Assembly: GCF_004010195.1 (NCBI RefSeq)
Contig: NC_057748.1
Location: forward strand, 15,679,190 to 15,743,189
DNA: 64,000 nt
Direction: 5' to 3'
DNA from: Chiloscyllium plagiosum
Lineage: Eukaryota
Shown piece after piece: positions 1-57,562 of this stretch (positions are counted from its first letter, which is position 1; every line of letters begins with the position of its first letter). Position numbers and translations under genes: made by a program. The notes beneath the pieces were generated by a model. It searched no databases. It saw nothing but the letters and a program-made list of their open reading frames with translations, and was not told where the DNA came from.

Positions 1-1175
1 AAAGCCCTTCATCAGGAATAAAGGCAGTGAGCCTGAAGTGTGGAGAGATAAGCTAGAGGAGGATGGGAGTGGGGAGAAAGTAGCATAGAGTACAATGGGT
101 GAGTGGGGGAGGGAATGAAGGTGATAGGTCAGGGAGGAGAGGGTGGAGTGGATAGGTGGAAAAGGAGATAGGCAGGTAGGACAAGTCCGGACAAGTCATG
201 GGGACAGTGCTGAGCTGGAAGTTTGGAACTAGGGTGAGGTGAGAGAAGGGGAAATGAAAAAACTGTTGAAGTCCACATTGATGCCCTGGGGTTGAAGTGT
301 TCCGAGGCGGAAGATGAGGTGTTCTTCCTCCAGGTGTCTGGTGGTGAGGGAGCACCGGTGTAGGAGGCCCAGGACCCCCATGTCCTCGGCAGAGTGGGAG
401 GGGGAGTTGGAATGTTGGGCCACGGGGCGGTGTGGTTGATTGGTGCGGGTGTCCCGGAGATGTTCCCTAAAGCGCTCTGCTAGGAGGCGCCCAGTCTCCC
501 CAATGTAGACAGGAATATATTTCCCTCCACACCCCTTTCCGCCTTCCGCAAAGACCGTTCCCTCCGTGACTACCTGGTCAGGTCCACGCCCCCCTACAAC
601 CCACCCTCCCATCCTGGCACTTTCCCCTGCCACCGCAGGAACTGTAAAACCTGNNNNNNNNNNNNNNNNNNNNNNNNNNNNNNNNNNNNNNNNNNNNNNN
701 NNNNNNNNNNNNNNNNNNNNNNNNNNNNNNNNNNNNNNNNNNNNNNNNNNNNNNNNNNNNNNNNNNNACACTTCAACCCCAGGGCATCAATGTGGACTTC
801 AACAGTTTCCTCATTTCCCCTTCCCCCACCTCACCCTCGTTCCAAACTTCCAGCTCAGCACTGTCCCCATGACTTGTCTGGACTTGTCCTACCTGCCTAT
901 CTCCTTTTCCACCTATCCACTCCACCCTCTCCTCCCTGACCTATCACCTTCATCCTCTCCCCCACTCACCCATTGTACTCTATGCTACTTTCTCCCCACT
1001 CCCACCCTCCTCTAGCTTATCTCTCCATGCTTCAGGCTCTCTGCCTTTATTCCTGATGAAGGGCTTTTGCCCGAAACGTCGATTTTGAAGCTGCTTGGAT
1101 GCTGCCTGAACTGCTGTGCTCTTCCAGCACCACTAATCTAGAATCTGGTTTCCAGCATCTGCAGTCATTGTTTTT
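1..1175. mobile_element. Penelope-like element (Neptune-type), partial, arranged as an inverted pair
   Basis: Minus arm 1-508 encodes GIY-YIG endonuclease YIGETGRLLAERFREHL...VAQHSNS...FRLGTLQPQGIN. Plus arm 509-1175 has SAFRKDRSLRDYLVRS...PCHRRNCKTC (Cys linker) and the same 3' end inverted. Assembly gap at 654-767. Confidence 0.88.
1050..1084 (+). ncRNA. Minimal type-I hammerhead ribozyme motif (PLE family 1)
   Basis: ttc-CTGATGA-A-GGGC-TTTT-GCCC-GAAA-CG-TC-gat: intact core boxes, 4-bp stem II, palindromic ACGT stem III, GUC triplet. Confidence 0.75.
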
Positions 1176-1177
1176 AC

Positions 1178-1740
1178 ACCATTTTGAACTGCTGCAGTCC
1201 GTAAAGTATAGCCAAGTTCACAGTGCTATTAAGAAGCAACAACAGTGAAGGAATGACAATTATAGTTCTGGGTCAGGCTGATGTGTCGCTTTGAGGAGGA
1301 TATGCAGATGATAGTGTTCCCATGTATCTACTACCTTTATCCTTCTAAGTGCTAGAGGCCACAATTTGGAAGGTACTGTTAAAGGAGTCTTGGTCAATTG
1401 CTGCAGTACATCTTGTAAATGATACACACTACTGCTACTGTGCATTGAGTTGGTGGGAGTGAATTTTGAAAGTGATGGATGGTGTGCTAATCAAGGGAAT
1501 CGCTTTGTCTTGGATGGTATCAAAATCCTTTGAGTGTTGTTGGAGTTGCATTTACCCAGCAAACAAGAAGTATTCCAGCACAGTCCCAATTTGTGACTTG
1601 AAAATGCTGAATGGGTTTTGGGGAGTCAGCGGGTGAGTTACTCACTGCAGAATTCCCAGCTTCTGATCTGCTGCAGCCCTATTATATATATTGGAGCAGT
1701 TAGCTTCAGGTCATTAGAAATCCAGGATGGCAATGATAAT
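1178..1740 (-). mobile_element. LINE 3' fragment (CR1/L2-group)
   Basis: Homologous to copies at 12900-14240, 56480-56820 and 60370-60600; decayed reading frame. Confidence 0.6.
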
Positions 1741-1769
1741 GTACCATATCTACAAAGGCTCACACACAT

Positions 1770-55340: not shown

Positions 55341-56050
55341 CCAGTCATTAGCTACAAAGCACTTTGAGATTTCTGACTGCCATGAAAGACACCACAAAAA
55401 TGTAAGCTTTCCTTCCTCAATTCTTTCCCCCTCTTTTCCTCCTCCCCATCCCCCCTTCCTTAACCACAACATTGACCTGAACCTCATTGGCCCTCTTATT
55501 CAACATAGAAAGGAATGTCTACTCTTTACTTTGACAATGCCTTTTCCAAATACTGTTCCTTTTCTTGTTCACAAAATTACCAGCAAGACCCAGGTCAGTG
55601 CCAGTGATAATTAAAATCTGAGCATCATGACGATTGGGTTTTCAGATTTTTGAGGCGTGCCTTTCATCTTTTGCAATAGAGCTTTGACTGAAAACCACAA
55701 TTCTTCATGGTGGACAACTTTATTCTATAATGAGTTGGGCTGAAGGAATTCCTTTTTGATATTGAGAAGTGTAGCAAACTACTGCCATGTTAGTGACATC
55801 CCTACAATAAATTTGAGAAAAAAAAACTCACCTAAACTTAAGTAGTTCATCTTGGTGAAAATTTGTGACATTCTCTTTTAAGATGCGGCCCACATTTGTG
55901 TTGAAATGAAAGGTATTACTGAGCTGATTGGATATTCATTCTCTCAATGACACTCACTATCTCCGTTGCAGCACTGTTTTGGATGCAGGGGGTTTAACGT
56001 ATGATGTGTTGATGCTGTGGGTTCTAACATTTTGCTTTTTGATGCCACAG

Positions 56051-56176
56051 AGCCATTCAGTGCAGATGTCTGGGTGATGATGTTCGTAATGCTCCTGATT
56101 GTCTCTGCTGTCGCAGTGTTCGTCTTTGAGTACTTCAGCCCTGTGGGATACAACCGGTGTCTGGCTGATGGAAGGG
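56051..56176 (+). CDS. GRIN2B: GluN2B-like exon (pre-M1/M1)
   Basis: ccacag acceptor, G|gtaagc donor; 126 bp; [42 protein letters not shown] (2B-diagnostic ADVW and YNRCLADGR). Confidence 0.96.
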
Positions 56177-57294
56177 GTAAGCTGCTGTATTCGTGCCATT
56201 GATCTCTCAGCCAACCTCTTATTCTATATATAAAACATCTTACAGCTGGAATTGAATAGAATGCTTGCTGTAACCCAATTACAGAGCAGCAGTAAACAAT
56301 TGAGCTTGCTGCCTCACTTTAACAGATTTTACCTGAAGCAAGGGATCTGACTCTGTTGAAATCTATATCGCTCTCCAAATTTGGCTATCAAACTTCATCA
56401 GTTAAGTTCCAACCTGTGTGCCTTACTTACACTTGTATATCTTTTTTTCACACACTTTATCCATCCAATTTCTTTTCTTCACTTATGGGACATGGATTTC
56501 GCTGGCTAGTCAGCATTGTATTGCCCACCCCTAGTTGCCCTTGAGAAAGTGGGGGTGAGCTGCCTTCTTGAACTGCTGCAGTTCACCTGCTGTAGGTTGA
56601 CTCATAATGGGAGCTCCAGAACTTTGACCTAGCAACAGTGAAGGAACAGCAATATATTTCCAAGTCAGGATGGTGAGTGGCTTGGAGAGAAACTTATCGG
56701 GTGGTAATATTCCTATGTAGCTGCTGCCCTTGACCTTCTAGATGGAAGTGGTTGTGGGTTTGGAAGGTGCTGTCTAAGGATCTTTGGTGAACTTCTGTAG
56801 TGCACCTTCTAGATAGTACATGCATCGGTGACAGAATCCTTTTGATCTTTTGATCAGGGTGGTGCTATAATCTTTCAAATAAATTAATTGTATAGGTCCC
56901 CATCCTGAACCTTCAGATTGTATTCCAGTCTGTAACTCACACCTAAGTTTCTATTACTCTCTAGATAACATCAATTGAATTTGATTTTGGGTTGCTTCCA
57001 GTTACATGTTATTTTTATTATAATCCACACAAAACCCCCAACCAATCATTTGTTGTTACAATTGTGTGGTCTTATAAGCTATGCCTTTACATCTAGCATA
57101 AATAAAAGGGATCATGTGACATGTTCTGGAGTTAGACTGGGAGGTTCATTAGAGATCAAAGGATAGCTGAAATAGTTTTACTGGGAAGAACGTGCAAGGC
57201 GTATTTACTTGGAGACAATGGCAGCATTGACTGAGTTCAAAATCGGTAAGTTCTGGGTCTCCCAAAGTCCCAGAAATGTGTTGAAGGTTGTACA

Positions 57295-57562
57295 AAGTCA
57301 GAAGTCACATGACACCATGTTATAGTCCAACAGGTTTATTTGAAATCACAAGCTTTCGGAGCGCTGCTCCTTCATCAGCTGAACTTCCAACTTTGTCCAC
57401 ACCAGTCCAACACTGGCACCTCCACATCATGTTTATCTGAAGGTCGTACACAGGGAGAAAGTGAGGACTGCAGATGCTGGAGATCAGGTAGAGAGTGCAG
57501 TGCTGGAAAAGCACGGCAGGTCAGACAGCATCTGAGGAGCAGGAGAATCGACATTTCAGGCA
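57295..57562 (-). mobile_element. Adjacent PLE mini-elements: family 5 (57295-57430) and family 1 (57452-57562)
   Basis: Reverse complement CTGATGA-A-GGAGC-AGC-GCTCC-GAAA-GCTT at ~57350-57378; homology to 32890-33082 and 48985-49116. Confidence 0.78.

Follow-up and report, generated by a model that had tools for sequence, protein, structure and literature searches.

What carried so many hammerhead ribozyme motifs into one NMDA-receptor gene of Chiloscyllium plagiosum, and are they active there? The window, that is, the whole stretch analysed, comprises 64,000 nucleotides (NC_057748.1, positions 15,679,190 to 15,743,189). A preliminary description listed 17 motifs in it. These motifs, together with several more, are very probably minimal type-I hammerheads in the 3'-terminal repeats of five families of Penelope-like elements (PLEs), present in GluN2 introns as 5'-truncated leftovers, likely copied from uncleaved RNA and likely inert now.

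The motifs proved to be real. A hammerhead core (CUGANGA, bulged N, helix II, GAAA or a one-letter variant, NN, UH) was found at 17 of 17 listed sites, offset from the positions first given by no more than about 25 nt. Core position C3 falls at 1053, 7219, 13986, 20398, 48000, and 49457 on the plus strand, and at 6488, 13439, 15798, 19752, 20387, 30209, 32969, 43395, 46365, 49115, and 57378 on the minus strand. A strict descriptor (exact core, UH, no fewer than 3/4 helix-II pairs, and a helix I of 2 bp or longer) gave 7 matches in the window, whereas none of 200 dinucleotide shuffles yielded any; with one GAAA mismatch tolerated, 10 matches were obtained against a shuffle mean of 0.15. Cores absent from the first list were found at 15 (minus strand, clipped by the window start), 32477 (plus), about 52528 (plus), and about 23401 (plus, decayed), as were copies beginning within the hammerhead (42336 plus, 57564 minus) and hammerhead-less stubs (28151, 43917). 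The Rfam scan of the window (E ≤ 1) matched no hammerhead family. Five microRNA-family matches scored under the gathering cut-offs, all on hairpins, and were dismissed as hairpin artefacts. Exact-pattern scans of metagenome contigs and of viral contigs gave 0 loci in either set.

The gene was correctly recognized as that of an NMDA-receptor subunit. PDB matches (GluN2B, E 1.7e-26; GluN2A, E 1.9e-26) and Pfam domains (PF10613, PF00060) identify a GluN2 subunit on the plus strand. The 21 insertions, about 5 kb in total, lie in its introns; none overlaps the seven approximately mapped exons, and the bulk of them bear a hammerhead motif. The features are as follows (TSD, target-site duplication).

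1–510, minus: family A (Neptune-like) inverted arm with a GIY-YIG C-terminal fragment (531–238, by tblastn), a pyrimidine-rich 3' UTR, and a core (C3 15) clipped by the window start; 1–300 matches 768–1067 inverted at 96%
511–1177, plus: family A direct arm with Zn-finger linker (511–651), assembly gap (654–767), 3' UTR, complete hammerhead (C3 1053, predicted cut after 1080), and tail to about 1177
6399–6592, minus: family A fold-back, C3 6488, helix II broken, tail on the inverted arm continuing helix I in register, no significant TSD
7192–7291, plus: family A short copy (C3 7219) with a 14-nt inverted tail end in front and an imperfect 17-bp TSD
13328–14027, both strands: family B (Poseidon-like) head-to-head pair, complete hammerheads 13439 (minus) and 13986 (plus), endonuclease C-terminal fragment, gap 13475–13813, 13–16-bp TSD, ATG at helix II start
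15705–15925 (ends approximate), minus: family D fold-back with an exact core (C3 15798), a broken palindrome, and the tail on its inverted arm
19638–20473, both strands: family C (Poseidon-like) head-to-head pair, an endonuclease fragment on each arm, hammerheads 19752 (minus, G12 lost) and 20398 (plus), 39-nt tail at one end only, 12-bp TSD
20299–20394, minus: family A solo, complete hammerhead (C3 20387), inserted in the family C hammerhead core, 15 bp of which are duplicated
23398–23490, plus: old family D-like copy, core mutated (nhmmer E 1.1e-6)
28151–28201, plus: family D stub, hammerhead-less
30078–30213, minus: family A solo with tail, C3 30209, G12 lost
32471–32553, plus: family D copy, C3 32477, G12 lost
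32890–33082, minus: family E fold-back, C3 32969, G12 lost, tail on the inverted arm, 11-bp TSD
42226–42422, plus: family A fold-back, direct arm beginning within the core (or core decayed), 14-bp TSD
43305–43398, minus: family A solo, C3 43395, start 3 nt upstream of the core, 12-bp imperfect TSD
43917–43958, plus: family D-like stub, hammerhead-less
46245–46369, minus: family A solo with tail, C3 46365, G12 lost, start 4 nt upstream of the core, 12-bp imperfect TSD
47998–48095, plus: family D solo, C3 48000, G12 lost
48980–49187, minus: family A fold-back, complete hammerhead (C3 49115), tail on the hammerhead arm, 12–17-bp TSD
49453–49544, plus: family A solo, C3 49457, G12 lost, start 4 nt upstream of the core, 11–12-bp imperfect TSD
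52523–52622, plus: old family D copy, C3 about 52528
57295–57437, minus: family E insertion with an exact core (C3 57378), an inverted arm consisting of tail only, and an imperfect 13-bp TSD
57450–57565, minus: family A copy with tail, beginning in helix II
About 39230–39345, 44764–44976, 50960–51130, 54380–54505, 56020–56175, 58311–58630, and 61190–61350 (edges approximate), plus: host GluN2 (GRIN2A/2B-like) coding exons, by six-frame motif scan

The core boxes had been described as kept, and they are exact in 11 of the 17 listed copies; the other six, however, have one change, at G12 (to A at 30209, 46365, 49457, 19752, and 48000; to U at 32969). With 32477 included, G12 is lost in 7/18 scored copies. 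Stem II was said always to pair. This is true of the best copies of every family, but helix II is reduced to 1–2/4 pairs at 6488, 7219, 43395, and 46365, all in family A. G10.1 is invariant (17/17), with a G10.1-C11.1 pair and an unpaired base at 9/10.1. The palindromic stretch (15.1–16.1), which allows an intermolecular helix III, is kept in 11/18 copies: it is ACGU in families A and B, AUAU in one C copy, and AGCU in E, and it is kept in 0/3 family-D copies. Just 6/17 copies (1053, 13439, 13986, 20387, 20398, and 49115) combine an unaltered core with a paired helix II, a helix I, and a Watson-Crick palindrome.

Minimal hammerheads (min-HHRs) sit in the pLTRs of metazoan PLEs (PMC4209133). 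As described in the available part of that source, they resemble the present motifs in the type-I core, the unpaired base between 9 and 10.1, the G10.1-C11.1 pair, and the palindrome at 15.2–16.2; helix I is 2–4 bp here, whereas it is 4–5 bp there. They also form several heterogeneous families per genome, mainly as single copies or opposite-strand pairs 100–700 bp apart. Since this is the central result of that work, the claim that such a population was unreported in kind is not supported. The available part names no sharks and does not describe the start points of single copies.

Five families (A–E) were distinguished, in line with the four to five first proposed. Across 15 copies of A–D, helices I and II covary between families, as a check on the family sequences required: 79.3% of cells were paired against 62.7±2.7 in shuffles and 20–38% in slid controls, a result that rests on about four family-level changes and not on 15 independent events. 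Two-sided changes in the same set numbered 27, against 10.5 in shuffles, whereas pairs-with-change (128/500) and pair-type counts (225/500) did not beat the shuffles. Family E was omitted from this set because it was misaligned; with E in, paired cells were 73.2%.

The attribution to several Penelope-type lineages is borne out by this covariation and by the GIY-YIG endonuclease end, which lies upstream of the hammerhead in the same sense in A, B, and C. The endonuclease fragments of the window had no Pfam match by themselves, and no reverse-transcriptase (RT) part was found within the window; their relatives carry the RT domain. Nine endonuclease/RT relatives were found for the A fragment (tblastn, 70% over 100 aa to protein P0001) and 11 for the C fragment, with the best from carpet sharks. 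Pfam GIY-YIG was matched by 5/5 family-A relatives scanned (E ≤ 0.005), two of which exceed the curated cut-off. The Neptune/Nematis clade is marked by a Zn finger in the RT-EN linker, according to the available part of 10.1101/2021.04.23.441226. Family A has a Cys-rich Zn-finger linker at 511–651, which is missing from the family-C relative P0018, and appears Neptune-like, the two members of that clade not being separated. Families B and C, which lack the linker Zn finger and have an ATG at the helix II start with related N-terminal peptides, appear Poseidon-like (Penelope/Poseidon clade). In family A, an ATG within the core opens just a short frame in 2/3 translated copies. Because family D is tied to A only by nucleotide homology (E 8.6e-10), and no protein-coding link for D or E was found in the window, these two families were filed by anatomy alone. 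No partial-tandem full-length copy with pLTRs was found in the window.

The insertions share a common anatomy: a hammerhead, an optional 30–45-nt tail, a head-to-head inverted arm, and TSDs of 11–17 bp. The TSD score was at least 9 in 11/19 tested insertions, compared with 0.7% of random position pairs; the other 8/19 had no significant TSD. The 3' ends fall into two classes in the window, at C3+87–90 and +120–135 in family A, and at +75 and +114 in family C; loose ends behind 1133–1138 and 1177 were seen in three sequencing runs. The two ends of family B differ by 70 nt, and the long ends of B and C lie 105–108 nt after the ATG. In the available parts of PMC3846280 and 10.1101/2021.04.23.441226, EN+ PLE insertions have an inverted 5'-truncated copy, a 30–40-bp tail at one end, and an 8–10-bp TSD. 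The insertions here are similar in their head-to-head arms, one-ended tail, TSDs, and assembly gaps at inverted centres. They differ in being mostly miniature (90–220 nt), in their 11–17-bp TSDs, in the clustering of family-A 5' ends at helix I, and in the 70-nt end difference of family B, which exceeds the published 30–40-nt tail.

A parallel for B and C is the Poseidon element PAc of Anolis carolinensis (PMC11167929), in which the ORF also starts at the helix II start, the tail lies between two ends, and uncleaved RNA is the template; B and C are known here from sequence alone. The cut site lies 28 nt after the ATG in B/C versus 26 in PAc, and the long end lies 105–108 nt into the ORF versus 111–118. 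Unlike PAc, family A is Neptune-like with a core ATG that opens only a short frame, and B has the 70-nt end difference. By analogy with the Anolis element, the RT-endonuclease would nick the target and start cDNA at one of two sites, about 75–90 or 110–135 nt downstream of the core, a choice that would account for the optional tail; if both target strands were extended, head-to-head hairpins tailed on one end only would result. The copies span the predicted cut site and retain the whole core, which indicates that the template was not self-cleaved. In the active source elements, the hammerhead may be under selection and probably cleaves solely when dimerized by way of the 4-nt palindrome or when assisted by protein, and the inserted copies would decay, the CpG-linked G12 first.

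The 5' ends of family A need a separate explanation. Eight of 11 family-A insertions start 0–13 nt upstream of C3, and the four solo copies with TSDs start at −3, −4, −4, and −7. Self-cleavage was rejected as their source, because these starts precede the core and lie roughly 30 nt ahead of the predicted cut. An additional cut immediately before helix I was also rejected, since by inspection neither helix III nor helix I can be formed for it. A family-A break at position 1049 recurs in three sequencing runs. The flanks before it are near-random (agreement 0.32–0.45, versus 0.63–0.81 at the internal subfamily break 1084–1086), and depth rises 4-, 17-, and 9-fold from bin 1023–1037 to bin 1053–1067. 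Position 1049 is the +1 A of a match to the initiator consensus YYANWYY. Such matches are common (1.3% of positions, six within 768–1060), and none was found at the matching place in B, C, D, and E. The recurrent break and the initiator-like A hint that the template RNA begins at 1049. Family-A copies may thus mostly end at the front edge of helix I because their common template RNA begins there, a reading that we put forward tentatively. A fuller version, held more tentatively still, is that the RNA starts at an initiator on the first base of helix I, and that RT starts about 90 and 130 nt downstream give "strong-stop" cDNA, which integrates by itself.

It is rather unlikely that the 5' ends pile up through reverse transcription on a long template, with the RT pausing or releasing as it leaves a folded (possibly dimeric, protein-bound) hammerhead, or with the cDNA end annealing through 2–4-bp helix I complementarity. 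This would require no new promoter. The inverted arm of the 6399–6592 hairpin carries helix I on in register, and other inverted arms begin inside the hammerhead (in helix II, or beside the cut site). However, a structural block would be expected on entry from the 3' side and not after passage, and the hammerhead is not the predicted minimum-energy fold in 7/8 monomers or in any of 8 dimers. Less likely again, the short A copies could be a self-standing non-autonomous element of 90–135 nt, a hammerhead-headed SINE or retrozyme-like unit with its own start at the front of helix I, remobilised by a Neptune-like enzyme. The helix I starts, the 1049 break with its flanks, depth rise, and initiator match, and a few head-to-tail joints of 1177 to 1049/1056 in sequencing run X15 would all suit such an element. 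Yet the 3' ends and fold-back junctions vary between copies, so that each was seemingly built at insertion; a second subfamily with different upstream sequence breaks at 1049 too; and the initiator match is of a common kind and, at this place, confined to A. Because repeats are collapsed in contigs, the run counts give too high a number of unique flanks, and all four B and C arms reach far upstream. Animal non-LTR retrozymes, as presented in the available part of 10.64898/2026.07.22.740005, are similar non-coding, pLTR-related units with type-I hammerheads and are present in the one chondrichthyan sampled. They form tandem arrays of at least two hammerhead-bearing units, reported to be depleted from Xenopus introns, whereas the insertions here lie scattered in introns, singly or as inverted pairs; no head-to-tail hammerhead units were found in the window.

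Activity of some intronic hammerheads in the GluN2 pre-mRNA, altering splicing or level, is very unlikely. Three complete motifs (1053, 13986, 20398) do lie on the sense strand, and family-A sequence occurs on both strands in one RNA run (X19, with another organism label and a fragmented library; 1897 of 12,955,460 records read); the search of runs for the family sequence listed no RNA run among the holders. In the fragmented RNA library no pile-up of molecule ends showed, nor would one be expected from such a library. Nine family-A copies have no private change at non-CpG core positions (0/90, versus 22/386 downstream, p=0.012), which would speak against neutral decay; the effect depends on which copies enter, and it vanishes when two excluded A copies are added (8/110 versus 24/472, p=0.36). 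The sense strand is neither depleted nor enriched (9 sense and 13 antisense of 22, p=0.52), and no strand bias marking selection against sense ribozymes was seen in any count (9/22, 6/17, 6/16; p 0.33–0.52), while G12 is lost in 7/18 copies. Complete motifs on the sense strand are separated from their nearest partners by 6.4 and 12.9 kb, and 2/3 of these motifs are covered by the inverted arm of the same insertion: the sense-strand hammerheads of B and C are each wholly contained in an 81-nt inverted repeat. The six fold-back copies are predicted to form long hairpins, not hammerheads. Folding energies, which omit core tertiary contacts, gave no support for an active dimer. Published min-HHRs had no monomer activity and low dimer activity (PMC4209133, available part), PAc needs the element's protein (PMC11167929), and 8/9 Xenopus dimers were uncleaved (10.64898/2026.07.22.740005, available part). 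Cleavage of most copies in place is doubtful. It is scarcely credible that the hairpin copies are DNA-transposon MITEs or microRNA-like hairpins with an incidental hammerhead match, even though six loci are 150–220-nt palindromes, four of them with TSDs and two with sub-threshold Rfam microRNA matches. The same sequence also occurs unpaired and joined to GIY-YIG fragments, and the helices covary across families. A MITE requires symmetric terminal inverted repeats and a fixed short TSD, which is contradicted by the one-sided tail and by TSDs varying from 11 to 17 bp.

Arm-to-arm divergence, with wide intervals, is 4–19% in A, 4% in B, 6% in E, 9–15% in C, and 9% in D, and one family-A copy is nested in a family-C copy. 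These overlapping divergences are plausibly compatible with overlapping activity of the families. The earlier suggestion of co-active lineages fits the overlap and the nesting, but is only loosely shown. Nor is it supported that the NMDA-receptor gene is special in this regard, since PLE expansion in introns is reported for the whale shark (10.1101/443036).

Taken as a catalogue, the locus extends a class first described in 2014 by shark examples and tells little about the NMDA receptor. A search of openly accessible papers found no account of shark PLE hammerheads, nor of 5' ends clustering at helix I; figure S2 of PMC11167929 may already show the clustering. The five covarying families are ready constructs for dimer and protein-assisted cleavage. 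The abundant short copies preserve the points at which PLE reverse transcription began and ended, and the clustering of 5' ends at helix I instead of the cut site bears directly on the role of the PLE hammerhead. If the strong-stop reading is true, it would explain why shark genomes are filled with solo hammerhead-plus-tail stubs and hairpins, and genomic copies alone would show uncleaved RNA as the in vivo template. A vertebrate PLE would then have its promoter, ribozyme, and priming sites packed within 140 nt.

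Hammerhead motifs were found at all 17 sites proposed in the preliminary description, no more than about 25 nt from the positions it gave. Every site has, in order, CUGANGA, a single unpaired base, a helix II of 4-6 bp, GAAA (or a sequence differing from it by one letter), a dinucleotide, and UH. A strict descriptor matched seven times in the window and never in any of 200 dinucleotide shuffles; tolerating one GAAA mismatch raised the count to 10, against 0.15 in shuffles. The Rfam scan of the window returned no hammerhead match. Profile searches identified further cores at 15, 32477, ~52528, and ~23401, together with two copies starting within the hammerhead and two hammerhead-less stubs. 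The core boxes had been described as kept and stem II as always pairing. The core is exact in 11 of 17 sites, but the catalytic G12 is lost in 6, and helix II is down to 1-2 of 4 pairs in four family-A copies; core, helices, and palindrome are all present in six copies. The original observation is confirmed with minor overstatement, and its interpretation is partly supported.

Self-comparison and alignments defined five families (A-E) of Penelope-like elements (PLEs), in line with the four to five expected. Family A has 11 insertions. The longest (1-1177) is a head-to-head pair; its GIY-YIG endonuclease fragment and its cysteine-rich linker share 70-89% identity with a protein named from Chiloscyllium punctatum. 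A linker Zn finger is described as a mark of the Neptune/Nematis clades in the available part of Craig et al. (10.1101/2021.04.23.441226); P0018, which is related to family C, lacks it. Families B and C each have a single head-to-head insertion, and the C-terminal endonuclease fragments in these find their best relatives among proteins named from carpet sharks. Both have an ATG at the start of helix II that opens related peptides, and their long end lies 105-108 nt after this ATG. This layout is shared by the Anolis Poseidon element, in which reverse transcription begins 111-118 nt inside the ORF (PMC11167929). Downstream of the core, family D shows homology to A (E 8.6e-10); family E is filed by anatomy only, with no coding link within the window. 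Family-C-like endonuclease sequence is also contained in four NCBI shark gene models (P0011-P0014, named as CUE domain protein 2, MAP3K7, and WW domain-binding protein 2-like isoforms); these are either errors of annotation or exonised parts of PLEs.

In their anatomy, the insertions match published PLEs. Target-site duplications (TSDs) of 11-17 bp scored at least 9 in 11 of the 19 insertions tested, compared with 0.7% of random position pairs; the other eight gave no significant TSD. The 3' ends fall into two classes: relative to C3, the first core position, they are at +87-90 or +120-135 in family A, at +75 and +114 in family C, and at +41 and +111 in family B. When four sequencing runs were aligned to 768-1200, the three that contain family A showed the same two ends, one behind 1133-1138 and the other behind 1177. 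The fold-back insertions carry the extra tail on one arm only; an inverted copy with a one-sided 30-40-bp tail is described for PLEs in the accessible text of Arkhipova et al. 2013 (PMC3846280) and Craig et al. 2021 (10.1101/2021.04.23.441226). One family-A copy sits in the family-C hammerhead core (20284-20409), with 15 bp duplicated including CUGAAGA; this single instance may be accidental or may reflect a preference for inserting into other PLE ends. Both N gaps of the window (654-767, 13475-13813) lie in the middle of the two youngest insertions with head-to-head arms, which are 96% alike. At 6399-6592 (-), from the predicted cut site onward, the inverted arm continues helix I in register, and fold-back would lengthen helix I of the hammerhead; helix II is decayed in the same copy.

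The 5' ends of family A cluster at helix I. Eight of 11 insertions start 0-13 nt upstream of C3, including four solo copies with TSD (-3, -4, -4, -7); two start within the hammerhead, and one reaches >500 nt upstream, where a profile search of its upstream 280 nt found no second copy in the window. Loose ends before 1049 were seen in 821 contigs of run X15, 183 contigs of X1, and 298 reads of X19 (an RNA run with another organism label), with flank agreement of only 0.32-0.45 and 4-, 17-, and 9-fold rises in depth across this position, figures to be read with the caveats that a second subfamily with different upstream sequence breaks at the same place, that repeats are collapsed in contigs, which biases these towards unique flanks, and that the assembly may have been made from X15. 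The +1 A of an initiator match falls on position 1049, but such matches occur at 1.3% of positions. The reading we prefer, tentatively and at rather less than even probability, is that family-A RNA starts at helix I. The pile-up might instead come from a reverse-transcription stop or helix-I annealing, the main rival, to which we give somewhat less weight. No initiator match was found at the corresponding place in B-E, and all four arms of B and C extend far upstream of the hammerhead. In Drosophila Penelope, the promoter and RNA start are reported inside the terminal repeat (available part of PMC2377424), and an intron ends at helix I (PMC4209133, likewise in part). If transcription does start at helix I, the promoter there might make self-integrating short cDNAs, a possibility to which we give slightly less weight than to the start itself. 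Run X15 on 768-1200 also contains a few head-to-tail joints (1177 to 1049/1056/1094 and 1138 to 1059/1099); these represent short tandem units at other places in the genome, of the kind expected from retrozyme-like arrays.

The 21 insertion loci total 4,999 bp (7.8% of the window), and none overlaps the seven approximately mapped exons. The host gene encodes a GluN2 subunit on the + strand; the paralogue is left unnamed because the tested exon matches GluN2B and GluN2A about equally. Self-comparison also revealed a 15-locus family of ~300-nt repeats, 65-85% alike, which looks like a tRNA-derived shark SINE, perhaps HE1. LINE-like 3' fragments, presumably CR1-type, are also present, with a weak reverse transcriptase match at 35972-36286 (Pfam RVT_1, E 0.003).

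2563-2856, ~300-nt repeat
11086-11230, ~300-nt repeat
18886-19213, ~300-nt repeat
21666-21953, ~300-nt repeat
36591-36869, ~300-nt repeat
39740-40066, ~300-nt repeat
44062-44429, ~300-nt repeat
47536-47898, ~300-nt repeat
48280-48599, ~300-nt repeat
51317-51950, ~300-nt repeat
54024-54230, ~300-nt repeat
55054-55345, ~300-nt repeat
62399-62779, ~300-nt repeat
63552-63625, ~300-nt repeat
17473-17616, LINE-like 3' fragment
34716-35318, LINE-like 3' fragment
35673-36286, LINE-like 3' fragment
40872-41106, LINE-like 3' fragment
42976-43258, LINE-like 3' fragment
43405-43689, LINE-like 3' fragment
52899-53403, LINE-like 3' fragment
59756-60324, LINE-like 3' fragment

An AT-rich 88-nt palindrome at 41225-41312 (38-nt arms, 97% alike), single-copy in the window and unrelated to the hammerhead families, is possibly a MITE. 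About 5 kb (24000-29500) has no matches to the dispersed repeat families; its texture is degenerate, CA/TG-rich, and strand-skewed, with a hexamer microsatellite near 28100.

Arm divergence, which dates insertions on the assumption that arms are identical at birth, was 4.0, 11.9, 12.8, and 18.9% in A, 3.7% in B, 5.7% in E, 9.4% in D, and 8.8 and 14.8% in C, with wide intervals. The family-A range spans the other families, which fits the proposed co-activity of the lineages, but such overlap is no proof of it. The element's protein probably nicks the target and starts cDNA synthesis at either of two internal sites that lie downstream of the hammerhead. If both target strands were then extended, as they are by the Anolis protein in vitro (PMC11167929), head-to-head arms with one tail would result. 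All but four of the 21 insertions have the upstream core box, intact or decayed, and these span the predicted cut; the template RNA was therefore probably uncleaved. This agrees with the Anolis element, whose ribozyme mutants still insert in vitro (PMC11167929).

The hammerheads are probably silent where they now sit. Of 18 copies in a wider set, 7 have lost G12. The three complete motifs on the sense strand are separated by 6.4 and 12.9 kb, and the ones belonging to B and C each fall within their own inverted repeat. The hammerhead fold was the predicted minimum in 1/8 monomers and 0/8 dimers, under a folding model that ignores core contacts. No orientation bias relative to the host gene was seen (9/22 sense, p=0.52). 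Against silence in place, the non-CpG core of nine family-A copies has 0/90 private changes compared with 22/386 downstream (p=0.012), although the effect vanishes when two excluded copies are added (p=0.36).

Covariation between families was found. In 15 copies of A-D, 79.3% of helix cells are paired, compared with 62.7 shuffled and 20-38% in slid controls; two E copies were left out for an aligner offset of one column, and the value with them is 73.2%. Two-sided changes number 27 against 10.5 shuffled and trace back to some four or five events at the family level; of the five covariation measures, two do not exceed shuffles in these 15 copies. Helix I is UC/GA in A, GCA/UGC in B, UCA/UGA in C, GUU/AAC or GUG/CAC in D, and CAC/GUG in E. 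The covariation supports selection on the hammerhead in the source elements while these were active, rather than in the copies seen today.

The literature search, which covered papers, turned up none that deals with hammerheads of shark PLEs or with 5' ends located at helix I. Retrozymes are described as tandem arrays in the part available of 10.64898/2026.07.22.740005, which the window copies do not match. Whale-shark introns are reported to be expanded by CR1 and Penelope-like elements (10.1101/443036, in part). As far as the available text of Cervera and De la Pena 2014 (PMC4209133) goes, fish, coelacanth, and Xenopus have thousands of heterogeneous minimal hammerheads per genome in several families, mostly single or in opposite-strand pairs, with weak dimer activity. 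The elements of this window add members to this already described class of PLE minimal hammerheads.
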